Source: an uncultured Pseudomonadota bacterium (GTDB taxonomy: Bacteria > Pseudomonadota > Gammaproteobacteria > Natronospirales > REEB76). From it: DNA of 64,000 bases. Numbering within the stretch: position 1 is the stretch's first letter; every line of letters begins with the position of its first letter. The notes beneath the pieces are model-generated. The model searched no databases. It was not told where the DNA came from and saw only the letters and a list, made by a program, of their open reading frames with translations. The position numbers and the translations under genes are program-made. Positions 11,911-47,883 of the stretch are shown piece by piece. The stretch is taken from assembly GCA_963774895.1 (NCBI GenBank), contig CAVZGN010000001.1, forward strand, positions 450,419-514,418, in the 5' to 3' direction.

Positions 11911-12150
11911 ATGCTCGCGGTCATCGTGCTGGCGCCGCGTCTTTCTACTTACAAGACGATCGGCGCAGGTTTCCTTGTATTTTTATTTGTGCGGTGGTGT
12001 TCCTATCGCTTACCCAACACTTTCGCTGGTTTCGCTAGGGGCAAGGACGCATCCATGCCATCCGACATCAGCGCCAAGGTCGTCCCGTAAGGGGTGGTGG
12101 ATGACGCCCCTACAGTGTTCTAATCGGGTCATCGCCCCCAAACGGCCGGT

Positions 12151-31493: not shown

Positions 31494-31497
31494 CCTC

Positions 31498-32448: not shown

Positions 32449-32451
32449 ATG

Positions 32452-32982
32452 TCAGGGGCAGGTGAGTGTGGTATCCGCATTCGGCCTGTCCGAAATCCTT
32501 ACCCTTCCCATGACATTTACGATCAGTGCACGATCGTTACGGCCATCTTCGGAACAGTACCGGAACGTACCGTTGACGCTGCGCACATCCATGGGTCTGA
32601 AGGTGAACGAATTATGGTTGCTGACGATGGGTGTCTGCGGCCGGGCCGGGCCATGCACCTGCAATGTGGGTTCACCTGGGTCCACATGCGCCGTGCTGTC
32701 GCGATCGAGATTGTCGAAGATCAGCCAACCGCTGTTCCAGTCGCTGAGCGCATGATTACAGCTCACGCCATCGTTGCTCTTGCACATCACCACGTAGCTG
32801 TTACGGGCGATGGCCGCCTGGCGTGCAAAATTCAGTGAAGTATGTAACCCGTTGACCTCAGCGGCAGCCCGGTCGTGGCGGATCATGGCGGTAAAGCCGG
32901 GTACCGCGATAGTCGCGAGTATTGCGACTACCGCCAGGGTCGTGAGTAATTCTAGGATAGTAAAACCAGCATCCGTGCGCAT
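32452..32982 (-). CDS. type IV pilus minor pilin / pseudopilin (FimT/GspH family)
   Basis: MRTDAGFTILELLTTLAVVAILATIAVPGF is a prepilin N-methylation motif (G|FTxxE). FimT-like size. Confidence 0.75.
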   Translation of the reverse strand: MRTDAGFTILELLTTLAVVAILATIAVPGFTAMIRHDRAAAEVNGLHTSLNFARQAAIARNSYVVMCKSNDGVSCNHALSDWNSGWLIFDNLDRDSTAHVDPGEPTLQVHGPARPQTPIVSNHNSFTFRPMDVRSVNGTFRYCSEDGRNDRALIVNVMGRVRISDRPNADTTLTCP

Positions 32983-33048
32983 AATATCCTCCTCGGCAAA
33001 CATCCTGTTTTGCCCTGACCGGAATCAGCACCCCGGTCAGTTCAGCGT

Positions 33049-33067
33049 CTAAATGATTATCATTTTG
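33049..33067. promoter_or_regulatory. Fur-box-like palindrome
   Basis: ctaaatgattatcattttg matches 13/19 of GATAATGATAATCATTATC. The core aatgat-t-atcatt (33052-33064) is a perfect palindrome. It lies between the divergent fimT-like and fur genes. Confidence 0.45.
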
Positions 33068-33177
33068 ATCGAGTTAGTCAATAAAGAGTCCGTAAGCAAG
33101 CCTGAGGCTGCAGACGTAGACAGTATATAATTCTTGCGCCTATACTAAATCCAATCTGGGCGGACTACTTACTCTAA

Positions 33178-33612
33178 GTGACTGATTTAACTGCCATATC
33201 GCTGAACGGTGAGAAGCTTGCGGCGCATCTTGCCACCCACGGTGTAACACCCACATCCCAGCGACTCAAGATCGCAGAGGTGCTGTTTCGCAAGCCGCAG
33301 CATCTATCGGCGGAGCAGATCATGGCCGCCGTCAACCGCCAGCCGCCGAAGGTCTCCAAAGCCACGGTGTACAACACCCTCAAGCTGTTTTCGGACAAGG
33401 GCCTGGTGCGGGCAGTGATCGTGGATCCGGCGCGGGTGTTCTACGATCCCACCGCCGGCAACCATCACCATTTCTACAATGCCGATACTGGCGAGCTCAT
33501 GGATATCGAGCCCGAGCAGGTGAAGTTTGCACAACTCCCGGAATTGCCGCCGGGCACCCAGCAGGCTGGCGTCGAAGTCATCGTGCGGCTGAGGCGCAGC
33601 AATAAAAACTGA
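33178..33612 (+). CDS. Fur-family transcriptional regulator (no CxxC pairs, HHH motif; Irr-like)
   Basis: GTG start. TSQRLKIAEVLF...HLSAEQI...VSKATVYNTLKLFSDKGLV is a Fur winged helix. GNHHHFYNADTGELMDI lacks the structural-Zn cysteines. Confidence 0.8.
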   Translation: MTDLTAISLNGEKLAAHLATHGVTPTSQRLKIAEVLFRKPQHLSAEQIMAAVNRQPPKVSKATVYNTLKLFSDKGLVRAVIVDPARVFYDPTAGNHHHFYNADTGELMDIEPEQVKFAQLPELPPGTQQAGVEVIVRLRRSNKN

Positions 33613-33674
33613 GTTTTACCGTCACGCACGCGTTCCGATATACTGCGCGCCTTCAAATAAGTTTGGTCACACAA

Positions 33675-33750
<76 letters not shown>

Positions 33751-33900
33751 ATAACGACGCCCGAGAGATCATGCGCCTCTAGAAAACCGTGGTCAGTCCC
33801 AATTATACGATGATATATTTCGGCCTCAGCGAGATATTTCAATGAGCTTCTTGGTAAACAAGGAATATACAAGAAGGAATGCCCCAAATGCGGCTACTGA

Positions 33901-34428
33901 CTAATCAAGGCAGTCAGCAATAGACAAGAGTAAGAAGTTATCATTACCATTTTTAATCAAGATTATATTTCCATTAGTGTATTTCAGCTGTGCGCTGTTA
34001 TCTCCACTCGCTGTCCAATCCATATGTGGAATGTTCTGAATAATACTATTCGCAATTGATACGGCAGTTAATGATGACTCATTACCAGGTATATCAACAT
34101 AAATTGCGTCAATGGTAGGATTCGCAGTTAATCCTGACCATTCTAGGGTGATGATTCGATGATTTAGCACTATCTGTGATGCATATTGACCACAGGCTGG
34201 AAAGGCTTGTGCGTGAATATCAATTCTGTTACCTAATTGTTTTTCTACATCGCTGTGTGTTTCATTTATATATATTCCAGACCAGCCAAGTCTTCCAGCA
34301 TTTATAGCTACATAATCACCTGTATTATTTAAATGCGGGGTAGGGCGTGAGGCACACGTACAAATAAGCGTGCAGGTGCACAACAACCCCAATAGTTGGC
34401 CTAACCTCAAAGCGATCACTACTTGCAT
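33901..34428 (-). CDS. hypothetical secreted/membrane-anchored protein (175 aa)
   Basis: ATG 34428 gives the hydrophobic, Cys-rich N-terminus MQVVIALRLGQLLGLLCTCTLICTCAS. It is the last gene of the minus-strand island operon. Confidence 0.5.
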   Translation of the reverse strand: MQVVIALRLGQLLGLLCTCTLICTCASRPTPHLNNTGDYVAINAGRLGWSGIYINETHSDVEKQLGNRIDIHAQAFPACGQYASQIVLNHRIITLEWSGLTANPTIDAIYVDIPGNESSLTAVSIANSIIQNIPHMDWTASGDNSAQLKYTNGNIILIKNGNDNFLLLSIADCLD

Positions 34429-34498
34429 CAACTCTATCCACAAGCACCGGCTAATCGGAGTCCCATGGGGCGTATGTAAATAGATTCGAATGCGCGCA

Positions 34499-34831
34499 TT
34501 ATTCTGTCGACTCTCTCAAATCTGCTTCGAATGTATTAACACGCTCCGATCCATCCAAAGTAGAACTATCCACCGACCCCACGATGAGTTCATTGTCGAT
34601 TACTTGAGTGGCATATTGGCTTCCGTACTCAACGATCTCCTCCGGGGTCGCGTAAATCCCCTTTGGATGAATCCAATGTATCTGATCCGACAGCCTGCCT
34701 TCTTCGGGTCGAATTATTGCAATTGAAGCTACATACTTAAGTTGCGCAATCGTGTTCAATACACTTGATGGCAATTTATGTGCCGTCACTTTTATTACAA
34801 ATCCCTTGTATCCAAATACTTTTGGTTGCAT
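34499..34831 (-). CDS. island paralog family member P1 (110 aa), unknown function
   Basis: A ggaggg SD lies 7 nt before the ATG. MQPKVFGYKGFVIKV...YVASIAII...HPKGIYATPEEIVEYGSQYATQVIDNE shares the family pattern with P2-P4. Confidence 0.7.
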   Translation of the reverse strand: MQPKVFGYKGFVIKVTAHKLPSSVLNTIAQLKYVASIAIIRPEEGRLSDQIHWIHPKGIYATPEEIVEYGSQYATQVIDNELIVGSVDSSTLDGSERVNTFEADLRESTE

Positions 34832-34977
34832 CGAAAAACCCTCCAAGTTCGTAATGATGACTACTGACGGCCAGTAGATATCAACCGCACATAATCGATG
34901 TAATGCCCTATATCATAAAATACATTGATGATCTAAAAAGTATTATCATTCACGCTCTACCCTAAAGATCCATGTCA

Positions 34978-35298
34978 CTAACTACATTTGACTGAGAGAT
35001 CATTCTCGACAGACTTTACGCCTTTAACATGTCTGGCAACGTTGACGGCTTTGTCAATATCAGATTTAGAATTGATAAAGCCGCTCAATTTGACAATGCC
35101 TTTATATGTTTCAACGGTGATTTCGGTAGATTTGAGTCCTGTCGTGTGTAATAACGCGGTTTTGACGTCGGTTGTAATGACCGCATCGTCTGTGTATGCA
35201 GCTGCGTTCTCACACCTGGCGCCGGAGGAATATGTTATTAGCGGTGCGAATAGTAATATTGAGAGAATGAATGCAATCAGACGTTGATTAATTGACAT
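34978..35298 (-). CDS. periplasmic BON-domain protein (OsmY-like)
   Basis: A signal peptide is present. DDAVITTDVKTALLHTTGLKSTEITVETYKGIVKLSGFINSKSDIDKAVNVARHVKGVKSVENDL is a BON domain. Confidence 0.8.
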   Translation of the reverse strand: MSINQRLIAFILSILLFAPLITYSSGARCENAAAYTDDAVITTDVKTALLHTTGLKSTEITVETYKGIVKLSGFINSKSDIDKAVNVARHVKGVKSVENDLSVKCS

Positions 35299-35341
35299 GA
35301 GATATCCTCCGCATCAAGTTGAGTAATCGTATCGTTGCTCA

Positions 35342-35620
35342 TCAAGCATGACTTAAAGTCAGATCGCTAAAAGTTGTGCAACATAACCCATCATCTAGAG
35401 TGCGCATCGCAAACTGCCTTCCATGTTCCAAAGCTCTCTGTGGAGAGCTGGAGATTCTGCCAGGGTGCAGCCATTTCTCCTGGCATTTATCCGGCATCCA
35501 CGACATACGCACAATTGCAATGGAGACAAATCGCGGGCGATTACTATTACTTTTTGAGGCTAGTTTTACCGGAACTACTTTTATTATGAATCCCATGTAT
35601 TCGAAGTTTTCTTCTAGCAT
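35342..35620 (-). CDS. island paralog family member P2 (92 aa)
   Basis: An aagagg SD lies 7 nt before the ATG. MLEENFEYMGFIIKV...FVSIAIV...LHPGRISSSPQRALEHGRQFAMRTLDD. Confidence 0.7.
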   Translation of the reverse strand: MLEENFEYMGFIIKVVPVKLASKSNSNRPRFVSIAIVRMSWMPDKCQEKWLHPGRISSSPQRALEHGRQFAMRTLDDGLCCTTFSDLTLSHA

Positions 35621-35702
35621 GGCAATACCTCTTTACTCGTATGGTTATGTGAAATGCCCAATGAGGAATTCAAAAACCTATTCTCGACTCAGAGAGATAT
35701 TG

Positions 35703-35718
35703 AGCAATTGGAATGCCA
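35703..35718 (-). promoter_or_regulatory. sigma54 (-24/-12) promoter for the P2-BON-P1 operon
   Basis: The minus strand reads TGGCAT-tccaa-TTGCT, 82 nt upstream of the P2 ATG. Confidence 0.7.
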
Positions 35719-35794
35719 ATGCGAAAAAGCAGCATTCCTCCAATGGGTTATCTCGATTTTATAAGTATGGAATTAATAAAATGCAGATGAAGGA

Positions 35795-35995
35795 TGTCTC
35801 CTTGTGGAGACGAATTTACGCAGGTTGTTGAGTAATACCTTGAAAAAAACGGGTATGCGGGTGTCGGCTCAAGGAGACAGTGTTAACAAAAGCGAGCTAC
35901 CACTCATTCCAAGGCATTAATCAGTACCTCTGCATTGAAGAAATCGTCCGACCTCTTTGTTTACGGAGAACTGCATCTGTCGTCAACGGATGACG
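35795..35995. promoter_or_regulatory. three TGTC-N10-GAC(A/G) sites (candidate enhancer-binding sites) in the divergent control region
   Basis: The sites are TGTCtccttgtggaGACG (35795-35812), TGTCggctcaaggaGACA (35862-35879) and TGTCgtcaacggatGACG (35978-35995). They lie between the two divergent sigma54 promoters. Confidence 0.55.
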
Positions 35996-36078
35996 TTCGA
36001 TTTGTATTTGTGCGTCTTTCGCACAACCGGCGTTAATAAATTATCAGTAAATGTCCCAGTTTGGCAGCGATGCAGCCT

Positions 36079-36094
36079 TGGCATGGCATTTGCT
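36079..36094 (+). promoter_or_regulatory. sigma54 promoter for the 36175-P3-exbBD-tonB operon
   Basis: TGGCAT-ggcat-TTGCT, 80 nt upstream of ATG 36175. Confidence 0.7.
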
Positions 36095-36174
36095 CCTTTG
36101 TATATGCCGGCACGCATAAGCCTATTTGCCGTTGGGAAACTGCATAGCCGCTGCATATTTCTTCAGGAGCAGTT

Positions 36175-36564
36175 ATGAAAAGCGTATGCCTAGTACTGCT
36201 AATGATGTCGTCAGCTTTAGGGTTCAAGTTCGTTGATGCGTATAGCACTGCGCACATCAGCCAGGCTCTAACCCAAGCTGCAACAGGCAAAACAGGCAAT
36301 AACCAGCAGGTAGGAAGCACGTCGCCATTTACATTGGCGTTGGCAGACGCGACGGCAGTGCCGCCTGCGTCAGCTTCCAAAGTTCCAGCAGCGAAAGCGA
36401 AAAAAGCGGGTGCGCCAGCATGCAGCAGGCAACCCCCAGTCAATCATGACGCCCAAGTGATTCCGGCTCGAAATAAGGCGCAGTGGCCGCAATCAAGACT
36501 TCCAGCTGAACAGCAAACGCAATGCCAGGCTCAAAAGCCGTTGCATAAGCCTCCGCCCATCTAA
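36175..36564 (+). CDS. small secreted low-complexity (A/P/Q/K-rich) protein ending in KPPPI
   Basis: The signal peptide is MKSVCLVLLMMSSALGFKFVDA. An aggag SD is present. The C-terminal PPPI tail is shared with the two small lipoproteins at 39059 and 39791. Confidence 0.6.
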   Translation: MKSVCLVLLMMSSALGFKFVDAYSTAHISQALTQAATGKTGNNQQVGSTSPFTLALADATAVPPASASKVPAAKAKKAGAPACSRQPPVNHDAQVIPARNKAQWPQSRLPAEQQTQCQAQKPLHKPPPI

Positions 36565-36649
36565 ATAGATGATTCCTATGCATGCCGGCAGTGCGTCAAG
36601 ACTTAAGACCAAGCGAATCCCAATAACACACAGTGAGAGGAGAGCCAGC

Positions 36650-36943
36650 ATGATCATCGAGAAATTCAGCTATAAGGGTTTCACCATAAAGGTGAGTGCA
36701 CACGAGTTGTTTCACGGTTTTGGTCCTTCGGGAGTCAATTTAGGCTGGTATACCAGTGCAGTCGCCATATCAAAAAAACCGGATGGCGAGTGTCACGATT
36801 GTGAGGAAACCCTGCATCCCGGCAGGATTTCTGTCAGCCCCGAAAGAGCCATGGACTATGGCAAAAATTATGCCAGGCACGTTATTGATGAAGAAATTTT
36901 GTATTCAAACCTGAGTAAATTTCTGACGACGCGTCCGATATGA
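36650..36943 (+). CDS. island paralog family member P3 (97 aa)
   Basis: The SD is gagaggag. MIIEKFSYKGFTIKV...YTSAVAI...LHPGRISVSPERAMDYGKNYARHVIDEE. Confidence 0.7.
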   Translation: MIIEKFSYKGFTIKVSAHELFHGFGPSGVNLGWYTSAVAISKKPDGECHDCEETLHPGRISVSPERAMDYGKNYARHVIDEEILYSNLSKFLTTRPI

Positions 36944-36990
36944 ATACGTTTATTAATCGGACATGACTCTTTGGAAATGGAGGGATGCAC

Positions 36991-37695
36991 ATGAATGCCG
37001 TGACCGACCCAAATATCAACAATATTATCAACCCACCCAACCTGTCGCTCGGCCAACTTGTGCTGCATGCGGATCCAATCGTGCAAGCCGTATTGCTGCT
37101 GCTCTTGGTATTGTCCATATGGAGCTGGGCTGTCATTGTGCAGAAGGCCTTTGAACTGCATCGCGCTAAAAGGGTAGTGAAAAAACTGGAAACCGCTATC
37201 GAAAATGGGCATTCACCGGACGAAATCGGCGTAGTTGAAACGCATCCAGCCGCGGTCGTAATCAAGGCCGGGGTATTGGAATGGCAAACACAAATTCAGC
37301 CGAACTTAGGTGAAACCCCGGGCGAAGAACGTGAACGCATAGAACAAAGCATGCGCAACGCCCTGGGTCGCGAGATGCGCCGCATGCAGAAACGCCTGCC
37401 GCTACTCGCTACCGTGGGTTCGGTCGCAGTATTCATCGGTCTATTTGGCACGGTTTGGGGAATTATGAACAGTTTCACGGCAATTGCCCAAGCCCATGAC
37501 ACAAGTCTCGCTGTGGTAGCTCCCGGCATAGCCCAAGCGCTCATCGGCACAGCAGCTGGTTTGGCTGCGGCGATTCCCGCCGTCATCGGCTACAACAAAT
37601 TGGTAACCGAACTGAACTATTACGCGGGGCGGCTGCAGACGCTTATCAGCGTTTGCAGCAACATGATGGTCAAAAGCATTCGCGTTGGAGCATGA
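36991..37695 (+). CDS. exbB: MotA/TolQ/ExbB proton-channel protein
   Basis: A ggaggg SD lies 6 nt before ATG 36991. FIGLFGTVWGIMNSF and ALIGTAAGLAAAIPAVIGYN are ExbB/TolQ motifs. Confidence 0.85.
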   Translation: MNAVTDPNINNIINPPNLSLGQLVLHADPIVQAVLLLLLVLSIWSWAVIVQKAFELHRAKRVVKKLETAIENGHSPDEIGVVETHPAAVVIKAGVLEWQTQIQPNLGETPGEERERIEQSMRNALGREMRRMQKRLPLLATVGSVAVFIGLFGTVWGIMNSFTAIAQAHDTSLAVVAPGIAQALIGTAAGLAAAIPAVIGYNKLVTELNYYAGRLQTLISVCSNMMVKSIRVGA

Positions 37696-37699
37696 CGAC

Positions 37700-38197
37700 A
37701 TGGGCATGAATGTAACCCCCGGTGCGATGTCCGAAGATACGTTATCCGGTTATCAGCCAATGGCTGAAATCAATGTGACGCCACTGGTTGACGTTATGCT
37801 GGTATTACTCATCATATTTATGATTACAGCGCCTCTTATGATGGCGCAACTGCCCATTGAACTGCCCAAAACCAGCGCGGCGGAACTAGGTAAACCGAAA
37901 CAGCCGCTGATTGTTAGTCTGGATACAAAGGGGCAGTATTATATCGATGACAAACCTACTGCATCTGTGGACTTGCCCACGCAACTCAAGACACTTGCCA
38001 ACCAGGATCCCGATCAGACTGTGTATGTACGCGCTGATAAAGCCATCCCCTACGGGCAAGTGATGGCACTGCTGGGCGAAGTAGGCCAATCCGGGTTTTA
38101 CAGGATATCCTTGATAAGCAAACGGGCGAGTGCCTCAACGAATAGCTCCGGCGCCGCATCGCCTGCTCCCTTGGCAGGCACGCAGCCGCCACGCTGA
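37700..38197 (+). CDS. exbD: biopolymer transport protein ExbD/TolR
   Basis: AEINVTPLVDVMLVLLIIFMITAP is the signature TM segment. Confidence 0.85.
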   Translation: MGMNVTPGAMSEDTLSGYQPMAEINVTPLVDVMLVLLIIFMITAPLMMAQLPIELPKTSAAELGKPKQPLIVSLDTKGQYYIDDKPTASVDLPTQLKTLANQDPDQTVYVRADKAIPYGQVMALLGEVGQSGFYRISLISKRASASTNSSGAASPAPLAGTQPPR

Positions 38198-38200
38198 ATC

Positions 38201-38827
38201 ATGCTCCAATTCAGCCACAGTCTCGGGATATCGGTCGGTATCCATATAGCAGCGGTTCTGCTCCTAATCTTGATTGCCGAATATCATTCGGCCACACCTC
38301 TGCCACCTTCCAACGCATCTTTGGCCGATGCCATCGCCGTCAACATTGTGCCACCACCGCCACCGCAATCACCTCCGCAGCCGCCACAACCACGGGTGCC
38401 ACAGCCGACGCCGCCGGTCCTACAGCCGCCCCCGCAGACTATTTCTACCGAAGCCGCTCAGGCCGATATATCAACACCACCGCCCAAGAGCATTCCAGCT
38501 CCGGCACCGCCGCCGCCCACGCAGAGTCAAACTACGCCTCTGGAAGCGACCTATGCGCAGATTGTCAGCGCCCTTCTGGAAGCAAATAAGCGCTACCCAC
38601 GCCAGGCATTGCTTGCCGGAGAACAGGGCACCGTGATCTTGTGGTTTGTGCTTAACCGTGAAGGTACGGTACTTGCGTATCGGATTGAACAGTCTTCAGG
38701 GCAACTGATATTCGATGAAGCAGTGAAACGCCTTATTCAGCGTATTCATTTTCCACCCTTTCCGAATCGCGATCTGAGCCAACGCAAGACCTTCATGGTA
38801 CCCATACAATTCGAGTTAACGGGATAA
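38201..38827 (+). CDS. tonB: energy transducer TonB
   Basis: An N-terminal TM is followed by a Pro-rich spacer (PPPPPQSPPQPPQPRVPQP). The C-terminal TonB domain reads YPRQALLAGEQGTVILWFVLNREGTV. Confidence 0.85.
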   Translation: MLQFSHSLGISVGIHIAAVLLLILIAEYHSATPLPPSNASLADAIAVNIVPPPPPQSPPQPPQPRVPQPTPPVLQPPPQTISTEAAQADISTPPPKSIPAPAPPPPTQSQTTPLEATYAQIVSALLEANKRYPRQALLAGEQGTVILWFVLNREGTVLAYRIEQSSGQLIFDEAVKRLIQRIHFPPFPNRDLSQRKTFMVPIQFELTG

Positions 38828-38835
38828 ATTGTTGT

Positions 38836-38920
38836 TGTCTCATTCCACCGACATCATATTTTTCACTGAATTCAAGGCGTTGTAGATTCAATCCGGTCTA
38901 AGCGTCACCCTCAGGCGACA
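38836..38920. promoter_or_regulatory. two (T/C)GTC-N10-GACA sites upstream of the third sigma54 promoter
   Basis: The sites are TGTCtcattccaccGACA (38836-38853) and CGTCaccctcaggcGACA (38903-38920). Confidence 0.5.
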
Positions 38921-38982
38921 GATTTCCAGATAACGGTCGGTAAGACCCGCCGAATTAACCGTGTTTGCTGAATATCGGATTC

Positions 38983-38998
38983 TGGCACGTCGTTTGCA
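38983..38998 (+). promoter_or_regulatory. sigma54 promoter for the lipoprotein-P4 operon
   Basis: TGGCAC-gtcgt-TTGCA is a perfect consensus, 60 nt upstream of ATG 39059. Confidence 0.75.
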
Positions 38999-39058
38999 GG
39001 AGTATTCATCGGGTATCGAACCCAGGCTTTTCACTCCATTAAACATGCAGGTGGCGTT

Positions 39059-39262
39059 ATGAAAATCATAGTTGCTGGATGCTTGACAGCTTCGCTGATC
39101 CTCGGGGCACTCTGTGCTTGTAATGGCAATAATCCACAAAATAACCCGCAAGCGACTCCTGCCCCCACTACCCAGCAGGCGCCCGCACAGACAACACAGC
39201 CGGCGCCTACAGCCACGACCAAATCGAAGGCAGGATCGAACGTCGTACCGCCACCCCTCTGA
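39059..39262 (+). CDS. small secreted/lipoprotein, Q/P/T/A-rich, ending in VPPPL
   Basis: 67 aa, with an N-terminal hydrophobic segment and Cys residues (ILGALCAC). TTQQAPAQTTQPAPTATT is paralogous to the 39791 protein. Confidence 0.6.
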   Translation: MKIIVAGCLTASLILGALCACNGNNPQNNPQATPAPTTQQAPAQTTQPAPTATTKSKAGSNVVPPPL

Positions 39263-39290
39263 GGAAAGCCGTTTCACCAGGAGAATTGCC

Positions 39291-39566
39291 ATGACCCATA
39301 AAATCTTCGGCTATAAGGGATTTATCGTAAAGGTGATACCGCGTGAAGTCATTGCCATGCAATCCGCAGCCAACAGACGTATCCGTTATGCAGCATCCGT
39401 GGTGATCATGCGTTTTGTGGATGCCACACGCCACAAAAACGCGATGCGCTGCTATCCGGGTGGCACATGCGTGACGCCGGAGCAAGCGCTGAAGCTGGGC
39501 ACGGAATATGCCACTCACCTGATTGACGATGATTTCTCCATTACTGCGACGGCTGAACAATTCTGA
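39291..39566 (+). CDS. island paralog family member P4 (91 aa)
   Basis: A caggaga SD lies 6 nt before the ATG. MTHKIFGYKGFIVKV...YAASVVI...YPGGTCVTPEQALKLGTEYATHLIDDD. Confidence 0.7.
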   Translation: MTHKIFGYKGFIVKVIPREVIAMQSAANRRIRYAASVVIMRFVDATRHKNAMRCYPGGTCVTPEQALKLGTEYATHLIDDDFSITATAEQF

Positions 39567-39699
39567 ATTGACCGGCATTATTTTACGCTGCTGATCGTCG
39601 CAATGAGACAACGCTTCATTCATACGTTATGCCTATAACAAATGCTATTTGGAATTGGATCTATGCAAAAGGCTTTTAAAATCGGGTGTATTCGAAGCT

Positions 39700-39715
39700 T
39701 GGCATGCAGCTTGCT
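39700..39715 (+). promoter_or_regulatory. sigma54 promoter for the lipoprotein/EF-hand operon
   Basis: TGGCAT-gcagc-TTGCT, 75 nt upstream of ATG 39791. Confidence 0.7.
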
Positions 39716-39790
39716 GCATTTCAATCGGAGACGATATAAAACCATCGTGTTGCTTGTATCAATTTCATCACAACTGGGAAGGAGAGAACC

Positions 39791-39982
39791 ATGAAAATCG
39801 CTAATGCATTGGCTGCGCTACTGACACTCGGCCTTATTGCTGGGTGTTCTGGTAATCCGTCGCAGGACTCACAACAACAAGGTATGAACCCTGCAGGAAC
39901 CACCACACAACAGGCGCCGGCTCCGGCCACGCAGCCAGCACCGGCTCCAACGACCCACCAGCCACCACCCCCGTCGATATGA
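39791..39982 (+). CDS. small lipoprotein, Q/P/T/A-rich, ending in PPPPSI
   Basis: Canonical lipobox LIAGC. An aggagag SD is present. TTTQQAPAPATQPAPAPTT is paralogous to the 39059 protein. Confidence 0.65.
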   Translation: MKIANALAALLTLGLIAGCSGNPSQDSQQQGMNPAGTTTQQAPAPATQPAPAPTTHQPPPPSI

Positions 39983-40060
39983 TCGTGTCATCAGCCTCAG
40001 ACTGACAACGAAAATATCATGTTCAGAGGTAAATCACGCACTCTTATTTTAGAGGCATTT

Positions 40061-40438
40061 ATGAAAAACGTAATCGCAGTAATTTCAGGAATTGTGTTGG
40101 CAATCAGCCTGGGCGCCGCTTTCGCGGGCAATACACCAGCTAGCGGCAAGCAGGATATGCAGAATCCGGAGCAGGCATCGCAGACTCCATCCGATCCTCA
40201 AAATGCATGCAATACCAAATACCCAAGCTTCAGCCAGCTTGATACCAAACATAAGGATTATCTCACCAAGAAAGAAGTAAGCCGGGTTCACGGCCTGGAA
40301 CAGGCATTCAAGAAAGCTGACACCGACCATAATGGGAAACTGAGCGATTCTGAATATACGGCGTGGGTGGAATCCCATTGCAAAAGCAGCATGCTGAACC
40401 AGCAACCGCAGGGGCAGACACCACCACCGGTTGGATGA
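40061..40438 (+). CDS. periplasmic EF-hand calcium-binding protein
   Basis: A signal peptide is present. The EF-hand loop is DTDHNGKLSDSE, with a second degenerate loop DTKHKDYLTKKE. Confidence 0.7.
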   Translation: MKNVIAVISGIVLAISLGAAFAGNTPASGKQDMQNPEQASQTPSDPQNACNTKYPSFSQLDTKHKDYLTKKEVSRVHGLEQAFKKADTDHNGKLSDSEYTAWVESHCKSSMLNQQPQGQTPPPVG

Positions 40439-40486
40439 TTTAAATCGCGCGGTTATTAAACGCGTCTGCTATCAGCAGAACCTGTG

Positions 40487-40530
40487 TTCCGGCAGGGTCC
40501 GTTGGACCCTGCCGGAATGTTGTATATTTG
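40487..40530 (+). terminator. strong rho-independent terminator
   Basis: ttccggcagggtcc-gtt-ggaccctgccggaa forms a 14-bp stem, followed by a T-rich tract. Confidence 0.7.
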
Positions 40531-40705
40531 AATGGCAACTGTGCAAACTATGAAAGCCAGGCACCACCAGCTAGTAGCAAATAAGAAATAAACAGGCGGA
40601 TTTTGCTATAGCTCTTGGCAGAGCTCGACTACAAAGTTTCAGGGAAGGCGCGCAGAACCGCTGTATTTTGGGTGTCAATGGAAATAAGGAGTGTGTGTAG
40701 CACTT

Positions 40706-42142
40706 ATGAAAATTCTTCAGCCCAGCTCGATACGCAAACGGATCCTGTTCTCATTTTCGCTAGTCATGTTACCCCTGGTCTTTGGACTGGCAGTAGCAAT
40801 ACTCTCCATACATAATCTGGCTACACAGGGGCAAAACGCAGTTCTAAACGCCGCCGATACCGTTCAATACAGCCGCACGTTGCTGGAAGAACTACCCGAT
40901 ATGGAACGTAATGCGCTCCAGTACCGGGTACTGCAAGATCAATCGCTGTATAAGCTTTATACAGAACGGCATCAAGAATTCCAGCAGACCAGTACTGCCT
41001 TCTCACGCTTGAAGCTTAATGACACCATGCGTGAAAAACTCAACGAACTTACCACACGAGAGCAAGTCGTTTTCAATAATTTTTCGCGGTTCGATCCAAA
41101 TTCAGACGATTCCAATATGGCAGTGGATCAATTTGAGGATTTGAACAATCTGGCACGCTCCATACTCGCATTAGGCACGCAATCCATCGAAAATGAAATC
41201 AATAATATGCAGACGACTTCCAAAACCCGTCAAAGCCAACTGGCGTGGCTGGTGGCAATTCTGATACTCGCGGGTTTTTGCATGGCTGCAATATCCATCG
41301 TTCTGATCACTCGGCCAATGCGATCAATAGACCAGGCGATAAAGGGAATCGGCGCCGGAGATCTGGCCACCCCGATCGCGGTGAAAGGACCCCAGGATCT
41401 GAATGAACTTGGCAAACGCTTGGACTGGTTGCGCTCCAGGTTGCTTGATCTCGAGCAGCATCGCGTTCGCTTTCTCAGGCATATCTCACATGAACTCAAG
41501 ACACCGTTGACAAACATCCGTGAAGGTTCGCAGTTGTTGACGGATCAGATCGTGGGACCGCTTAATACTGAACAATTGGAAATTGCGCAGATTCTGCAAA
41601 AGAATGGCATGCAGTTGCAACAACGCATCGAAGATCTGCTGAATTACAGCGCCGCGCAAGGGCCTCAATTGTTCGGTGAAAACCAATTGATCAAGTTCAA
41701 TCAGGTGATTGTCAAAGTGATCGAGGACCAGAAGATGGCCATCAAGGCCAAACACATAAAAATCGATGCGCACTTGCATGAAGTCGCCATACTGGCTGAT
41801 GCGGAAAAAATTCGTATCGTAGTGGACAATCTGCTTTCCAACGCCATCAAATACTCGCCCATGGGCGGTGTAATCGGGCTGAATCTAAAGGTAGAGAATG
41901 GTCAAGCGGTTTTGAATGTGGAAGATCAAGGTCCAGGCATCAAAGCGGATGAGCGGGAGAAGGTTTTTGAAGCTTTTTATCAGGGCCAGGGCAGTGACAG
42001 CGGTTATGTAAAAGGCACCGGATTGGGTCTATCCATCGCCCGCGAATATATACGTCTGCACCAAGGTATGATTGAGATCGTCGAACGACAGCATGGAGCA
42101 GGCTTTCGGATTGCTCTACCCGCTACGGGATCAGGAGGCTGA
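40706..42142 (+). CDS. sensor histidine kinase (GlrK/QseE-like)
   Basis: Two TM segments, a HAMP-like region, the H-box FLRHISHELKTPLTNI and the ATPase motifs NAIKYSP, DQGPGI, GTGLGLSI. GTG 40691 is an alternative start. Confidence 0.8.
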   Translation: MKILQPSSIRKRILFSFSLVMLPLVFGLAVAILSIHNLATQGQNAVLNAADTVQYSRTLLEELPDMERNALQYRVLQDQSLYKLYTERHQEFQQTSTAFSRLKLNDTMREKLNELTTREQVVFNNFSRFDPNSDDSNMAVDQFEDLNNLARSILALGTQSIENEINNMQTTSKTRQSQLAWLVAILILAGFCMAAISIVLITRPMRSIDQAIKGIGAGDLATPIAVKGPQDLNELGKRLDWLRSRLLDLEQHRVRFLRHISHELKTPLTNIREGSQLLTDQIVGPLNTEQLEIAQILQKNGMQLQQRIEDLLNYSAAQGPQLFGENQLIKFNQVIVKVIEDQKMAIKAKHIKIDAHLHEVAILADAEKIRIVVDNLLSNAIKYSPMGGVIGLNLKVENGQAVLNVEDQGPGIKADEREKVFEAFYQGQGSDSGYVKGTGLGLSIAREYIRLHQGMIEIVERQHGAGFRIALPATGSGG

Positions 42143-42754
42143 ATGCGCAGGAATTTGCCTGGCCTAGTTGTATCGCTCGTCATCAGCATTATTCTGGTTT
42201 TGACGGGATGTATTCCCCGCTCCACAAAGCCGGATGTGCTTATGATCCCTGAAACAGGTGACGGCCAAATTGTCAGATTGATGGACTACGTCAACACCGT
42301 CTTGAGTCTGCCACCGGCTGCTCAGGCGGCCACGCAGGAAAACCTTAGGCAGCAATATAATCTAACGCAGTTCCCCGAAGACCGGATGCGACTTGCGCTT
42401 TTGGATGTTCTGTCGGACAGGCCGTCGCGCAATCTGGATGAGGCTGTGTCATTAGTATCTGGATATAACTGGGAAGTAGTGGGGCCGGGATTCAAGGGCT
42501 TGGCCAATCTGCTATTAAATATTGCCAGTAGTCAGCAAGCAATCGCCACAATTGACCAGTCACTCGCGCAGCAATTGGCTTCGGAGCGCTCACAAAAAGA
42601 TCATCTTCAACAACAACTGGACGCGTTGAAGAGTATCGAGAAAACCATGGATAAACGCGACAAGTCGATAGTGGCTCCACCCATCCGCAAGCTGCCGCCA
42701 GCCTCAACCAGCAACTCACAACCTCCAGCCACACCCCCTGGGGAGCAGCTTTGA
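42143..42754 (+). CDS. lipoprotein encoded between kinase and regulator (QseG/YfhG-like position)
   Basis: Lipobox LVLTGC. 203 aa. The position mirrors E. coli glrK-qseG-glrR. I cannot assert sequence similarity to QseG. Confidence 0.55.
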   Translation: MRRNLPGLVVSLVISIILVLTGCIPRSTKPDVLMIPETGDGQIVRLMDYVNTVLSLPPAAQAATQENLRQQYNLTQFPEDRMRLALLDVLSDRPSRNLDEAVSLVSGYNWEVVGPGFKGLANLLLNIASSQQAIATIDQSLAQQLASERSQKDHLQQQLDALKSIEKTMDKRDKSIVAPPIRKLPPASTSNSQPPATPPGEQL

Positions 42755-44127
42755 AAGCCACGCCCGCAAAAGCGATCTTGACTACGGGACGTATTCTGGT
42801 TGCTGACGATGACCCCGGCCTGCTGCGCCTGTTAGTCATGCGTCTGACCGCTGCGGGGCACGAGGTGCGTACGGTGGAAAGCGGCGAACAGGCCTTGGCG
42901 CAGATCCCGCTGTTCCGGCCACACGCGGTCATAACCGATATGCGCATGGCGGGTATGGATGGTATTGAGCTATTTAACAACATACGGCGCCATGATCAAT
43001 CTTTGCCAGTGATCATTCTCACCGCTCATGGCACTATTCCTGACGCCGTGGATGCCACCCATAAAGGAGTATTTGCCTATCTCACCAAACCCTTCGATAG
43101 CAAATCACTGTTGAAATGGGTGAACGATGCCTTGCGGATATCCGGCAAGCTTGAATTAAAAGATGTTGAAAACGCAGATGCTGCATGGCGTGCGGACATT
43201 ATCACACGCAGCCTGCTGATGGAGGATTTGTTGCGTCAAGCGAAGCTCGTATCTGCGGGCGATACGGCGGTTCTCATACAAGGTGAGAGTGGTACCGGCA
43301 AGGAACTATTGGCGCGTGCCATTCACAACGCCAGCCCGCGCGGCGACAAGCCGTTCATAGCCGTCAACTGTGCCGCGATCCCGGAAACCCTGCTGGAATC
43401 CGAGCTTTTCGGATACAGCAAGGGCGCATTCACCGGTGCAACCTCGGACCGGCGCGGCCTGTTTCAGGCCGCACATACCGGTACTCTATTCCTGGATGAG
43501 ATTGGCGACATGCCTTTGAGTTTCCAGGTGAAATTGTTGCGTGCGTTGCAGGAGAAAGAAATCCGGCCGGTTGGTTCGAATAATCCTATCGCAGTGGATG
43601 TACGCATTATTTCGGCCACGAACCATGACCTTGAAAAGAAGGTCTCGGAACAGGGGTTCCGCGAAGATCTATATTATCGGCTGGCAGTAGTGCCGCTGAC
43701 CATGCCACCGCTGGCAGCCCGCCGCGAAGATATTCCGCTCCTGGTTACCCATTTCCTAAGCCATGCGGGAGGAAGCAATACAAAAAGCATCAAAGGATTT
43801 GCACCCCGGGCCATGGAACTATTATTGAGTGCGCCTTGGCCGGGCAATGTGCGGCAGCTACAGAACGTAGTGGAACAAACCGTAGCACTTACCACCACCC
43901 CCCTCATACCGGAAGTCCTGGTACAAAATGCCCTGCGTGAGAAGACCGGACAAGTCACTTCCCTGGTCGAAGCGCGGGAACATTTTGAACGCGAATACCT
44001 GGTACAACTACTGCAAATCACCGAGGGCAACGTAAGTCAGGCAGCACACCTGGCGCAGCGGAATCGCACTGAATTCTACAAACTTTTACACCGTTACCAA
44101 CTTAAACCAGAGGAATTCCGATCCTGA
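42751..44127 (+). CDS. sigma54-dependent response regulator (GlrR/QseF-like, NtrC family)
   Basis: The receiver domain reads ILVADDDPGLLRLLVMRLT...PVIILTAHGTIPDAVDATHKGVFAYLTKP, close to my memory of GlrR. The AAA+ domain shows GESGTGKE and GAFTGA. A C-terminal Fis-type HTH is present. The TTG start overlaps the upstream stop. Confidence 0.85.
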   Translation: MKATPAKAILTTGRILVADDDPGLLRLLVMRLTAAGHEVRTVESGEQALAQIPLFRPHAVITDMRMAGMDGIELFNNIRRHDQSLPVIILTAHGTIPDAVDATHKGVFAYLTKPFDSKSLLKWVNDALRISGKLELKDVENADAAWRADIITRSLLMEDLLRQAKLVSAGDTAVLIQGESGTGKELLARAIHNASPRGDKPFIAVNCAAIPETLLESELFGYSKGAFTGATSDRRGLFQAAHTGTLFLDEIGDMPLSFQVKLLRALQEKEIRPVGSNNPIAVDVRIISATNHDLEKKVSEQGFREDLYYRLAVVPLTMPPLAARREDIPLLVTHFLSHAGGSNTKSIKGFAPRAMELLLSAPWPGNVRQLQNVVEQTVALTTTPLIPEVLVQNALREKTGQVTSLVEAREHFEREYLVQLLQITEGNVSQAAHLAQRNRTEFYKLLHRYQLKPEEFRS

Positions 44128-44234
44128 TTCGGTGCGAGTTGATACCGCCCATATATTAACAGCGGATTCTGTACTTTGAGAAGGGCGAGCGCCGCATGTA
44201 AGTGATTTTGATCGAACGCTTAAATATAACTTGT

Positions 44235-44280
44235 ATTCGTAATGCGTGGGTCGGGAGTTCGACTCTCTCCGCCGGCACCA
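44235..44280 (+). repeat. attR: displaced 3' fragment of tRNA-Thr (46 bp)
   Basis: attcgtaatgcgtgggtcgggagttcgactctctccgccggcacca is identical to 33705-33750. Confidence 0.9.
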
Positions 44281-44468
44281 AAAGAGCAAATGAATTAGCT
44301 AGTTGATTGATTTCTTGGTTCCGCTACTGGCGTTCAAGTAGCGATCGTTTACAGACATCATCAATTGATGATATATCCGCGGAAGGGTAATATTCGAAGG
44401 GATGAGTTTCAGTAGTGCCGGCCGCTTAAGGAAATTCAAAGTCGCCTGTGTGACAAGGAACGGCCAGA

Positions 44469-44923
44469 ATGACGCCGGTACGCCGCAAGCGTCTGATGGT
44501 TGTCGCCGTTATCATTGTGGGCCTGGCGACCGCCGCTACTGCCTTGGGTTTGCAGGCATTCAAGAAAAACCTGCTGTATAACTTCACACCCGCACAGGTA
44601 GCGGCCGCCGTGCGCACCTCGGCCAGCTGTTCCACATAAGTGGCCATGGCGGCCATGGGGAGTATTCTGTGCCACCCTGGCAGTATGACACCTCCAAGGT
44701 TATGCAGAAATCCAGCCCGGTGGTGTATTCTGGGATGCTATCGGACCTGTTTCGTGAAGGCCAAGGCATAGTGGTGTATGGCAAGCTGGACAAGAATGCA
44801 TTGTTCGTGGCTCAACAGGTGCTGGCCAAGCACGATGCCACCTACACGCCGCCGGAAGTGAACGCCGCCATCAAGAAAGCCGAGGTCGAGCAGCGGGCCG
44901 CGGCCGTAAAAGGTGTTACATGA
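44469..44923 (+). pseudogene. ccmE: cytochrome c maturation heme chaperone CcmE, reading frame disrupted
   Basis: ATG 44469 gives [46 protein letters not shown] and stops at TAA 44637-44639. The conserved part [23 protein letters not shown]...[14 protein letters not shown] is in another frame, ending at 44923 with an ATGA overlap with ccmF. The span is 455 nt, not a multiple of 3. Confidence 0.7.
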
Positions 44924-46926
44924 TTCCCGAACTCGGTCATCTTGCGTTGATTATTGCCCTGTGTCTGGCAGCGGCCCAAAGTTTTTTTGGTCTCGGCGGT
45001 GCGCAGCGCTCCAATCTTATCTGGATGAGCGCAGTGCGCTCGGCAGCAGTCGGACAGTCCTTGTTTGTATTGCTGGCTTTTACAGCGCTGGCTTATTCGT
45101 TTCTGATGAATGATTTCTCCGTGGCTTACGTGGCAGCCAATTCCAATACTGCCTTGCCCTGGCCTTATAAATTCACGGCGGTTTGGGGCGCGCATGAAGG
45201 TTCTCTGTTGCTGTGGGTCAGCGTGCTTGCTATATGGACCCTGGCGGTCGCGCGCTTCAGCCGTCATCTGCCACAGGATTTTTCCAGCCGCGTTCTGGGC
45301 GTGCTCGGCGTGATCAGCATCGGATTCTTGCTGTTCATGCTGACCACCTCTGATCCGTTTGGACGGCTGTTGCCGCCTGCGCAACAGGGCGCAGACCTGA
45401 ATCCCGTACTCCAGGATCCCGGCATGGCGATCCATCCGCCGATGCTGTACATGGGCTATGTTGGGATGTCGGTGGCCTTCGCCTTTGCGGTAGCCGCATT
45501 GCTCAGCGGCCGCATGGATGTCATGTGGGCCCGCTGGTCGCGGCCCTGGACCCTGGTGGCCTGGCTGTTTCTGACCTGTGGAATCACGTTCGGCAGCTGG
45601 TGGTCCTATTACGTGCTGGGCTGGGGCGGGTTCTGGTTCTGGGACCCAGTGGAAAACGCGTCGTTTATGCCGTGGCTGGTTGGAACGGCGCTGGTGCATT
45701 CGCTGGCAGTAACTGAAAAACGCGGCGCCTTTAAAAGCTGGACCGCTTTGCTGGCTATCACGGCGTTTTCTCTGAGCCTGCTCGGCACCTTTCTGGTGCG
45801 TTCCGGGATCTTGATTTCGGTGCACGCCTTCGCTAGCGATCCTAAGCGCGGTATTTTTATATTGGCCATGCTCGGTTTATTTATCGGTGTCGCGCTCACT
45901 TTGTATGCCTGGCGCGCTCCCATGTTCAGCCAGCGTGGCGGGGGATTCAAAATATTTTCCCGTGAGACTTTCCTGCTGCTCAACAATGTCTTTCTGGTGG
46001 TGGCCGCAGCTGCGGTTCTGCTCGGCACGCTGTACCCGCTGGTGCTGGGAGCGCTCGGGCTTGGCCAGATTTCAGTCGGTCCACCGTACTTTGACCATAT
46101 ATTCGTACCTCTAATGGTGCCATTTTTCATTCTGGCGGGCATAGGTCCGTATGTACGCTGGAAACACGGCAATATCTCTGAAACACTTGCAAAATTGCGG
46201 GTGCCGGCAGCATTGGCATTGCTGGCGGGCGTGGTGGTGATCGTGCTGCTGCGGGCTGAGGCCAGTTTCATTGCTACGGCCGGTGTGCTGCTGGCGGCCT
46301 GGATGATCTTCAGCGCATTGCAGGAACCCGTGCAGCGTATGTGGCAGCGGCTGCATCATGGGCATGCCAGCTTGGCACACAGCATTCTCGGCATGAGCGT
46401 CGCACATTTTGGAGCTGGTCTCATGATTCTCGGCGTAACCGTAAACTCCATGCTGGGGATTACCGTGGACCAGGTGATGAAACCGGGTACCAGCGTCGAA
46501 GTGCACGGTTATAAGTATTCATTTCAAGGCGTACGGGATGTATCCGGCCCCAATTATCAGGCGGTCCAGGGTACCGTGGCGGTGACCCGTGGCGGAAAAA
46601 TACTCACGCTGATTCACCCGGAAAAGCGCCAGTTCGATACTGGTGGCATGACTACCACCGAAGCGGCCATTGCTCCGGGACCATTCCGGGATCTGTACGT
46701 GGCGCTCGGCAACCCGCTGGGGCAGGATGCCTGGAGCGTGCGTATTGAATATAAACCTCTGGTCAGGTTCATCTGGCTGGGCGGGCTGACCATGATGTTG
46801 GGCGGAATCATCGCGCTTATGGATAAGCGCTACCGGCGTACCCGGGTGCCAGTCGCAATCGACGCGAGCACCCCACCCAAGGATGCTGACGCGAATCTGC
46901 CTAAATCTCCTGCAACGGAACGCTGA
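44920..46926 (+). CDS. ccmF: cytochrome c-type biogenesis protein CcmF (heme lyase)
   Basis: 668 aa and polytopic. [11 protein letters not shown] and [19 protein letters not shown] form the WWD-type domain. Confidence 0.9.
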
Positions 46927-47881: not shown

Positions 47882-47883
47882 GC

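Follow-up and report, generated by a model that had tools for sequence, protein, structure and literature searches.

A tRNA-flanked island predicted to encode a QseE/QseG/QseF-type three-component system together with its direct sigma-54 regulon

Sigma-54 is viewed as a controller of the bacterial exterior, and its promoters strictly need an enhancer-binding protein. In a 64,000-nucleotide stretch of DNA from an uncultured Pseudomonadota bacterium (contig CAVZGN010000001.1, positions 450,419 to 514,418; called the window from here on), one compact segment holds both partners: four -24/-12 promoter motifs, each in front of an operon, and contiguous genes for a sensor kinase, a lipoprotein and an enhancer-binding regulator resembling GlrR (QseF) of Escherichia coli. 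The question raised by this locus is whether the regulator drives the operons that lie beside it, and whether the whole was acquired as one unit. Our answer, to which we assign a probability of about 0.8, is that the segment 33752-44234 is a genomic island integrated at a tRNA-Thr gene, and that it carries the genes for all parts of a QseE(GlrK)/QseG/QseF(GlrR)-type three-component system plus its direct regulon; it is a prediction from sequence and from comparison with relatives.

Sigma-54 promoters and enhancer sites of the island

For comparison, related modules were fetched via a family of orphan proteins encoded in the island (described below), from metagenome-assembled genomes (MAGs) labelled ‘Gammaproteobacteria bacterium’. 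Five modules are counted, namely L081, L083, L085, L086 and L087, since L084 is a second copy of the L083 module. In L081 the whole block is common, with window positions 33905-44124 at 81.5% identity; the other four have the module without its leftward BON operon, and their coding parts are 70-79% identical. Because L081 is so close to the window (81.5% throughout the block), the weight of what follows rests on L083 and L085 to L087.

The initial annotation of this stretch had counted four matches to the sigma-54 motif TGGCAY-N5-TTGCW, each aimed at an open reading frame (ORF) with a Shine-Dalgarno sequence and an ATG 60-82 nt downstream, and had held them to be too many for chance. All four were found again in a rescan, at the same places and on the same strands; a fifth match had been overlooked, such that the features are as follows.

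35703-35718, minus strand: P1, exact sigma-54 -24/-12 promoter motif TGGCATtccaaTTGCT; kept in L081 at 9079 (minus strand)
36079-36094, plus strand: P2, exact sigma-54 promoter motif TGGCATggcatTTGCT; kept in L081, L083, L085, L086 and L087
38983-38998, plus strand: P3, exact sigma-54 promoter motif TGGCACgtcgtTTGCA; kept in all related modules
39700-39715, plus strand: P4, exact sigma-54 promoter motif TGGCATgcagcTTGCT; kept in L081 at 13065 and in L086 at 10424
36512-36527, minus strand: fifth sigma-54-like match, antisense inside the ORF 36175-36564

The distance from the end of the motif to the ATG is 82 nt for P1 (Shine-Dalgarno AGAGG), 80 nt for P2 (AGGAG), 60 nt for P3 (AGGTGG) and 75 nt for P4 (AGGAG). 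Against the five exact matches in the 64-kb window, 100 dinucleotide-preserving shuffles of it gave a mean of 0.31 and a maximum of 3, none reaching five, and all five matches lie inside the island, which makes up 16% of the window (p ~1e-4). That the matches are chance or compositional artefacts is a reading that we hold to be already refuted. The fifth, intragenic match does show that some matches can be non-functional, but the shuffles never attained the observed count, the promoter matches are all clustered in that 16%, and their orientation, spacing and conservation persist across diverged genomes. The usual features of sigma-54 promoters were indeed seen, i.e., GG at -24, GC at -12, fixed spacing, direction toward a gene, and retention in orthologous regions.

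As for the fifth match itself, it has no TGTC-N10-GACR site within 300 bp, is weakened in L081 (TGGCAG), and has no counterpart in the L086 scan, although window positions 36394-39987 align with L086. Since it is intragenic, antisense, without a nearby site and without a match in L086, it is probably not part of the regulon as judged from the sequence. Either chance or a silent sigma-54 binding site within a gene, such as have been mapped in E. coli (PMC4591121), could account for it.

For GlrR, the consensus TGTCN10GACA has been published, and IHF sites flank ABS3 (PMC3045617). The corresponding TGTC-N10-GACR pattern gave 16 strand hits in the window against 3.55 expected, and six of the 11 distinct sites fall in the island (binomial p = 0.004). 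The sites that had been annotated at 35795, 35862, 35978, 38836 and 38903 are all present. The further claim, that no site precedes the fourth promoter, holds for exact sites, but a decayed one was recognized there.

35795-35879, minus strand: P1 enhancer module, with the proximal site at 35795-35812, an IHF-like core at 35833-35844 and the distal site at 35862-35879; 67 bp between site starts
35978-35995, plus strand: single GlrR-type site TGTCGTCAACGGATGACG, 101 bp before P2; kept in L081 at 9340
38836-38920, plus strand: P3 enhancer module, with the distal site at 38836-38853, an IHF-like core at 38871-38882 and the proximal site at 38903-38920; 67 bp spacing
39596-39613, plus strand: decayed GlrR-type site CGTC-N10-AACG, 104 bp before P4; 3 mismatches

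The position of the 35978 site corresponds to that of the proximal site in the relatives, which lies 94-104 bp before the promoter. The decayed P4 site aligns with TGTCGCAATGGGACAACA of L081, and a good site, TGTCGTAAGGAGGCGACG, is found in L086 at the same offset. A site-like match at 35030, inside the BON gene, was dismissed as a coding coincidence, since L081 has the same kind of match there, consistent with conserved coding sequence.

An enhancer profile was then built from L083, L085, L086 and L087 only, with no window sequence in it, and the window was searched with filters off. In the 64 kb, only two regions were significant, each oriented to its own promoter: the P3 pair (38835-38922, plus strand, E = 1.2e-10) and the P1 pair (35795-35881, minus strand, E = 1.8e-6); the next best match had E = 0.29. 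Of 14 enhancer regions, 13 have the IHF-like core WTCAR-N4-TTR at a constant offset (34-36 nt), versus 0.8% of background segments. In the IHF consensus that has been quoted for the glmY promoter, WATCARNNNNTTR (PMC3045617), this element forms the core.

The same layout was found in every related module, namely a distal site (TGTCTC-N6-xCxGACA), the WTCAR-N4-TTR core, a proximal site 65-68 bp on (start to start), TGGCAY-N5-TTGC 80-104 bp beyond the proximal site, and a Shine-Dalgarno sequence with ATG 60-100 nt past the promoter. When seven promoter regions from three genomes, orthologous as well as paralogous, were aligned, the conserved columns were mainly those of the two sites, the element between them, the -24/-12 motif and the Shine-Dalgarno/ATG; in the otherwise diverged intergenic DNA of the related modules, sites and promoters form conserved patches. 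Ahead of the lipoprotein and EF-hand genes, promoter position and site content vary between L083 and L087 on the one hand and L086 and L081 on the other, and in L083 and L087 a full site pair precedes the EF-hand gene. Overall, co-occurrence of promoters, sites and the regulatory triad in related islands, which the initial annotation had proposed as a check, was borne out in all five modules.

The regulatory triad, its orthologs and the proposed wiring

The kinase, lipoprotein and GlrR-like activator that had been read at the right end of the island agreed with that description in order, coordinates and domains.

40706-42142, plus strand: QseE/GlrK-type sensor histidine kinase, 478 aa (Pfam HAMP-HisKA-HATPase)
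42143-42754, plus strand: QseG-like accessory lipoprotein, 203 aa, with a lipobox; between kinase and regulator
42751-44127, plus strand: GlrR/QseF-type sigma-54 enhancer-binding response regulator, 458 aa (REC, Sigma54_activat, HTH_8)

The three genes are contiguous or overlapping. The best NCBIfam model for the regulator is GlrR with 598 bits, followed by AtoC with 416; aligned with annotated E. coli GlrR, it shows 55% identity across 99% of its length. Its recognition helix, GNVSQAAHLAQRNRTEFYKLL as compared with GNVTHAARMAGRNRTEFYKLL in enterics, is nearly unchanged, and the helix-turn-helix (HTH) region as a whole is almost the same in the window regulator, its relatives, the Betaproteobacterial orthologs and enteric GlrR. 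The kinase is 31% identical, end to end, to GlrK of Xenorhabdus. According to a 2025 cryo-EM study of QseG and QseE (PMC12691602), genes in the order qseEGF occur widely among Gamma- and Betaproteobacteria and Acidithiobacillia, residues L209 and R219 of QseG and R70 of QseE are essential, and R73 of QseE is partly required. The equivalent of R70 is kept in the kinase motif MERNALQYR, where most other kinase orthologs have ERSxRQ; likewise, LKSIEKTMDKR of the lipoprotein aligns with LTDIERQLSTR of QseG, such that L162, E166 and R172 match L209, E213 and R219. An intermediate lipoprotein from Kushneria matches the family PF13942 at E = 1e-4.

The same scan for sites and promoters was run on 19 further loci, those of the closest GlrR homologs found among species-representative genomes. 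The kinase-lipoprotein-regulator order is present in 18 of these 19, and in the remaining one (L017) the contig breaks off immediately upstream of the lipoprotein gene. Two enteric loci, L009 and L014 (Xenorhabdus and Arsenophonus), served as a positive control: three sites and a promoter were found directly before the Rfam-confirmed GlmY, which begins right after the predicted promoter, matching the established glmY architecture. In the non-enteric orthologs, too, a sigma-54 promoter lies beside the triad together with two paired sites, 56-79 (mostly 65-68) bp apart, and the predicted targets are EF-hand proteins in L001, L002, L013 and L016, BON proteins in L002 and L003, MdoG/OpgG in L007 and, judged by eye, probable bactofilin-like proteins in L002, L010 and L015. 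Small ORFs with a PROSITE EF-hand loop lie beside the triad in 5 of the 19 GlrR-ortholog loci versus 1 of 61 loci of other enhancer-binding proteins (Fisher p = 0.0025). Because EF-hand ORFs and BON genes recur in this manner beside GlrR-ortholog triads, the EF-hand/BON content of the island is an expanded version of a recurrent regulon rather than an oddity.

Three side observations were made in these loci. The bactofilin-like genes (L002, minus strand, ~18750-18930; L010, ~7800; L015, ~7650-7730), whose hosts are Sulfuriferula, a gammaproteobacterial MAG and Propionivibrio, are divergent from or near the triad and lie behind GlrR-type site pairs and sigma-54 promoters. In L002, the gene 12059-12577 encodes EF-hands fused to a BON domain and shares an operon, downstream of glrR, with genes for unfused EF-hand and BON proteins; this fusion in one protein is a hint that the two classes work together. 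Lastly, site pairs with perfect or near-perfect sigma-54 promoters, but with no convincing ORF and no Rfam match to GlmY or GlmZ, were seen at 7272-7700 of L012, 11310-11800 of L004 and 7175-7450 of L008, the transcripts of which are candidates for undescribed small RNAs (sRNAs) under GlrR control in Burkholderiales and Kushneria.

From the sequence elements, their statistics and conservation, and the homology of the three regulators, we infer binding, sigma-54 dependence, a signal and a physiological role. Based on established knowledge of GlrR and other enhancer-binding proteins together with the evidence above, the inner-membrane kinase, aided by the outer-membrane lipoprotein, would sense an envelope or periplasmic condition and phosphorylate the GlrR-type regulator. 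The regulator would then bind the TGTC-N10-GACA sites, distal and proximal, 67 bp apart with the IHF-like bend site between them, and would oligomerise there; the IHF-type bend would bring it to the closed sigma-54 complex. ATP-driven opening of the closed holoenzyme complexes at the -24/-12 promoters, 80-104 bp downstream of the proximal site, would allow the four operons to be expressed.

It is conceivable that the sigma-54 promoters are genuine and yet served by another enhancer-binding protein, encoded elsewhere in the genome, the TGTC-N10-GACA sites being bound by a different factor such as a PpsR/CrtJ-type repressor (TGT-N12-ACA). Of this genome, our analysis covered the 64-kb window, and TGTCN10GACA is also quoted for PpsR in Rhodobacter (PMC5747161). 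Moreover, three perfect palindromic TGTC-N10-GACA matches occur outside the island (17184, 19939 and 21961), all in coding DNA and two of them inside a PAS-GGDEF-EAL gene (19707-22187); these are probably chance matches, since no sigma-54 motif is nearby. Nonetheless, we regard this alternative as most improbable. The sites co-occur with a GlrR-type regulator at more than 15 loci, from enterics to Betaproteobacteria and always beside the triad, and the HTH is conserved with that of the regulator whose site is experimentally known (PMC3045617). The sites, furthermore, stand at activator distances from the -24/-12 promoters without overlapping them, and the module moves as a unit between genome locations.

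With regard to wiring by the island's own regulator, it is to be noted that several points weigh against it. Upstream of P4 there is no exact TGTC-N10-GACR site, and the profile score of the decayed one is not significant (E = 2). P2 has a single, proximal-type site, in a divergent region that it has in common with P1. Agreement between the window and L081 alone says little. The regulator scores below the NCBIfam equivalog cut-off for GlrR (598 versus 763 bits). The kinase has Leu at the position of QseE R73. The lipoprotein gave no PF13942 hit, and its similarity to QseG by hhalign is weak (probability 6.9%, E = 0.005), the one aligned stretch being the contact motif. In view of the sub-cut-off GlrR score, the replacement of R73 and the weak lipoprotein similarity, the triad appears to be a divergent QseEGF-type system and not an equivalog. 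Finally, rpoN was not seen in the 64-kb window and must therefore come from elsewhere in the host genome, where the IHF genes are likewise assumed to reside. Thus, the locus is ‘self-contained’, as it had been described, in that sensor, regulator and target operons are together, but not with respect to rpoN.

The sequence evidence makes P4 the weakest link of the regulon. In a narrower alternative, only P1 to P3 belong to it in this island, P4 being in decay or under different control; its genes would then depend on some other activator, or else be weakly switched on, either from solution or by way of the P3 enhancer ~800 bp off. The three mismatches of the 39596-39613 site, its E value and the variation among relatives in the promoters before the lipoprotein and EF-hand genes would all agree with this. 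On the other hand, the -24/-12 motif of P4 is perfect and kept in L081 and L086, of which L086 has the good site at the same offset; the EF-hand promoter of L083 and L087 has the full site pair; and EF-hand genes are the most recurrent target class beside GlrR orthologs. We therefore consider exclusion of P4 unlikely, although it deserves more weight than any other alternative to the proposed wiring. The earlier proposal, that the island-borne activator drives all four operons, accordingly stands best for P1 and P3, with their full pairs, conserved layout and the GlrR homology, and is qualified at P4 by the decayed site.

Operon products and the orphan protein family

The four operons comprise 13 genes, which are listed here from left to right.

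33901-34443, minus strand: lipoprotein-like ORF, ~175-180 aa, no Pfam hit; ortholog in L081, within the 81.5%-identical block; probably closes the leftward P1 operon
34499-34831, minus strand: orphan paralog D, 110 aa (alignment A3; identical to P0001; DNA repeat D2)
34978-35298, minus strand: secreted BON-domain protein, OsmY-like, 106 aa (Pfam PF04972, E = 5e-19)
35342-35620, minus strand: orphan paralog C, 92 aa, first gene downstream of P1 (alignment A3; no Pfam hit)
36175-38827, plus strand: P2 operon, gene order identical in all five related modules
36175-36564, plus strand: secreted 129-aa protein, first P2 gene
36650-36943, plus strand: orphan paralog A, P2 operon
36985-37695, plus strand: ExbB/TolQ-like protein
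37685/37700-38197, plus strand: ExbD/TolR-like protein
38201-38827, plus strand: TonB_C protein
39059-39566, plus strand: P3 operon, a Q/P/T-rich 67-aa lipoprotein (39059-39262) followed by orphan paralog B
39291-39566, plus strand: orphan paralog B, P3 operon
39791-40520, plus strand: P4 operon, a 63-aa Q/P/T-rich lipoprotein (39791-39982), a secreted EF-hand protein (40061-40438) and a terminator

Domain searches agreed with the cargo that had been named earlier, i.e., unknown small proteins, a BON protein, an EF-hand protein and ExbBD-TonB. Eight of the products have predicted signal peptides or lipoboxes (the BON and EF-hand proteins and six small or unknown lipoproteins and secreted proteins), three make up a TolQR/TonB-like motor, and four are the orphan paralogs, which are without signal peptide. 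In NCBIfam scores the motor is nearer to TolQ/TolR than to ExbB/ExbD, and no TonB-dependent receptor is encoded in the module. The first genes after P3 and P4 encode paralogous Q/P/T-rich small lipoproteins, with which the 129-aa secreted product of the first P2 gene aligns more weakly (27% identity). All three first-gene products (P2, P3 and P4) end in PPP followed by I, L or SI. More generally, ends of the type PPP plus L/I/V, or near-like ends (PPPL, PPPSI, PPPI, TPPPVG), are common among the secreted proteins and lipoproteins of the module; they were noted for 36175-36564, 39059-39262, 39791-39982 and 40061-40438 as well as in L081, L083 and L085 to L087, and may be a shared C-terminal recognition or sorting tail. 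The small lipoproteins themselves are almost pure Q/P/T/A repeats (TTQQAPAPTTQ...).

Two further candidates were tried and rejected. Lanmodulin-type EF loops carry Pro at position 2. The EF-hand protein of the island is not a lanmodulin, as its loops DTKHKDYLTKKE and DTDHNGKLSDSE have Thr there, and its score with the model NF053806, 29 bits, is below the cut-off of 135. Autoregulation of the kinase operon was also set aside, because neither a -24/-12 motif nor a site was found by eye in 40521-40705. A terminator with a 17-bp stem (40484-40520) parts the EF-hand operon from the kinase operon; given this strong terminator upstream and the lack of such a promoter, the kinase operon is probably expressed constitutively.

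The four orphan paralogs, 91-110 aa in length, have an N-terminal F-x-Y-x-G-F-x-I-K-V motif, followed by the further motifs H-P-G ... P-E-x-A. No member has a Pfam match, and an NCBIfam search, run with one paralog, also gave none. The family has 29 members among 5.8 billion clustered proteins and eight representative clusters among 1.84 billion, and all 29 known sequences belong to these modules; an extremely rare protein family is hereby set in a defined regulatory context. The AlphaFold model (pLDDT 82) is a four-stranded sheet (beta-meander) followed by one long helix, and has no significant match among solved structures. In the window as well as in the related modules, paralog A always directly precedes the ExbB-like gene, which suggests a role as its cytoplasmic partner.

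Borders of the island and its relation to known systems

The segment 33752-44234, ~10.5 kb long, lies between two directly repeated 47-bp copies of the tRNA-Thr 3' end (repeat family D1), which are 100% identical and 10,530 bp apart.

33675-33751, plus strand: tRNA-Thr(CGT), found by ARAGORN and Rfam; its 3' 47 nt (33705-33751) are the left, attL-like repeat
44235-44281, plus strand: right copy of the 47-bp tRNA-Thr 3'-end repeat, attR-like

All ORFs between the repeats were accounted for, and no integrase, recombinase or other mobility gene is among them. The GC content is clearly lower only toward the left end (0.42 at 34-36 kb). The DNA of the block had no match in E. coli genomes, and scans of the island for sigma-70 promoters and terminators gave no enrichment over shuffles. 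In L081, the block adjoins the kdp operon, with no tRNA there, and its homology to the window has its limits just inside the repeats; in L083 and L085 to L087, the module occupies one fixed place, from a glucosaminidase gene to polysaccharide deacetylase/lpdA-sucB genes. Yet another relative, L088, has the flanking synteny of the window (murJ-ribF-ileS-lspA-ispH-fimT-fur-tRNA-Thr) but a different insert at the same tRNA. This insert, of ~2.3 kb, encodes a 538-aa protein of no known family and is bounded by a 45-bp tRNA-end repeat (L088 12200-14930). The tRNA-Thr gene is a recombination hotspot.

It could be argued that the block is a native locus that was never acquired horizontally, and that the 47-bp repeat is a local duplication of the tRNA end; the missing mobility genes, the GC content that drops clearly only at the left, and the fixed place of most of the module in four related genomes would fit such a view. 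Nonetheless, a native origin is very unlikely in our judgment, as the block is flanked by a repeat that reproduces precisely the tRNA 3' end without a mismatch, the homology with L081 begins and stops just inside this repeat, at a locus of L081 without tRNA, and the relative with murJ-ileS-ispH-fur-tRNA-Thr synteny has its own insert and its own tRNA-end repeat. Since the block sits elsewhere in L081 and the other relatives and L088 carries a different insert at tRNA-Thr, the best reading of the window copy is that of an island acquired at a hotspot of integration, with no recombinase of its own. The earlier term ‘mobile’ therefore agrees with the tRNA repeats and with the different locations in other genomes, but has to be qualified by the absence of an integrase. 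Some tRNA-integrated genomic islands lack their own recombinase and are known as cis-mobilisable elements (CIMEs). The present island is like them in its direct repeats of a tRNA 3' end, the lack of an integrase inside, and the different insert held by this tRNA in a relative; it differs in that no partner integrative element was identified, mobility being deduced only from structure and from the differing locations. If the reading is correct, a 16-gene circuit of sensor, regulator and targets could transfer as one 10.5-kb unit, needing only sigma-54, and probably IHF, from the host.

Among known systems, the closest is enterobacterial QseE/QseG/QseF (PMC3045617, PMC6075780, PMC12691602), which has the same order of kinase, outer-membrane lipoprotein and sigma-54 activator. 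It has the same TGTC-N10-GACA sites (two of them ~63-67 bp apart), which, together with IHF-like elements, precede a -24/-12 promoter, as well as a near-identical recognition helix; the C-terminal contact motif of QseG and R70 of QseE are kept in the island. The differences lie in the targets and the setting. The enterobacterial system controls the sRNA genes glmY and glmZ, whereas the island has four protein-coding operons beside the triad instead; in the island, the sites are not upstream of the kinase gene, and the whole system is on a tRNA-flanked island. An Rfam search of 30000-48000 found no sRNA, and GlmY and GlmZ were unmatched there even at E <= 1. Control of glmY/glmZ defines the enterobacterial regulon rather than the signalling system. 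The system has been investigated in enteric pathogens; in E. coli K-12, the cognate stimulus of QseE/QseF has been reported as unknown, and the direct targets are glmY and rpoE (PMC6075780).

The triad of the window belongs with the qseEGF clusters of Gamma- and Betaproteobacteria and Acidithiobacillia, with which it has in common the arrangement and the predicted QseG-QseE interface (PMC12691602). The passages of that study that were consulted treat the sensor complex and name no non-enterobacterial target genes, sites or promoters, and no search for ‘regulon’ or ‘target’ was made in it. In the literature, no targets of a non-enterobacterial QseEGF system were found, nor anything linking QseEGF or sigma-54 to EF-hand proteins. 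The initial annotation had called the regulon undescribed; indeed no description of it was found, but the spread of qseEGF beyond Enterobacteriaceae was already published in 2025, in the same study.

A second parallel is PspF with the psp operon, where an enhancer-binding protein is also encoded beside the envelope genes that it activates, from a -24/-12 promoter and with IHF assistance. PspF, however, has no receiver domain and is controlled by PspA, whereas control in the island would be by kinase and lipoprotein, and the cargo is unrelated. The regulatory principle and the three-component sensor are thus already known, and no new mechanism is involved. What is new is the direct multi-operon envelope regulon, as predicted here, with its recurrent EF-hand/BON core and the orphan paralog family, and the assembly of sensor, regulator and every target into a single tRNA-flanked unit that carries no mobility genes. 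The locus and its relatives provide a concrete target set with mapped predicted sites and promoters, and a first clear picture of possible control by this system outside enterobacteria.

The recurring EF-hand/BON link points to an envelope or divalent-cation signal. One may go further and suppose that secreted (predicted periplasmic) EF-hand, BON and other envelope proteins are the ancestral, general output of QseEGF/GlrKR, the enterobacterial wiring to glmY/glmZ/rpoE being derived; we advance this only tentatively and think it less probable than its opposite. If it were true, the stimulus of QseE/QseG would be tied to the state of the envelope, as regards either divalent cations (Ca2+) or the outer membrane, and the uncultured lineage would have expanded the regulon by an inducible TolQR/TonB-like motor, four orphan copies and packaging in a transferable island.

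A few minor observations concern the surroundings of the island. In L088, the intact tRNA-Thr is preceded by two tandem ~130-bp copies, each beginning with the tRNA-Thr 5' end (GCCGGCGTAGCTCAGTTGG...). A Fur-family regulator gene (33178-33612) is found immediately upstream of tRNA-Thr in the window, a position that is kept in L088; it is unrelated to the island but adjoins a TonB-bearing insert. On the other side, ~300 bp right of the right repeat, ccmE (44469-44920) seems to be frameshifted near 44600, its N-terminal part (MTPVRRKRLMVV...FTPAQVAA) being in one frame and the remainder (GQLFHISG...) in another, which would be either a pseudogene or an assembly error.

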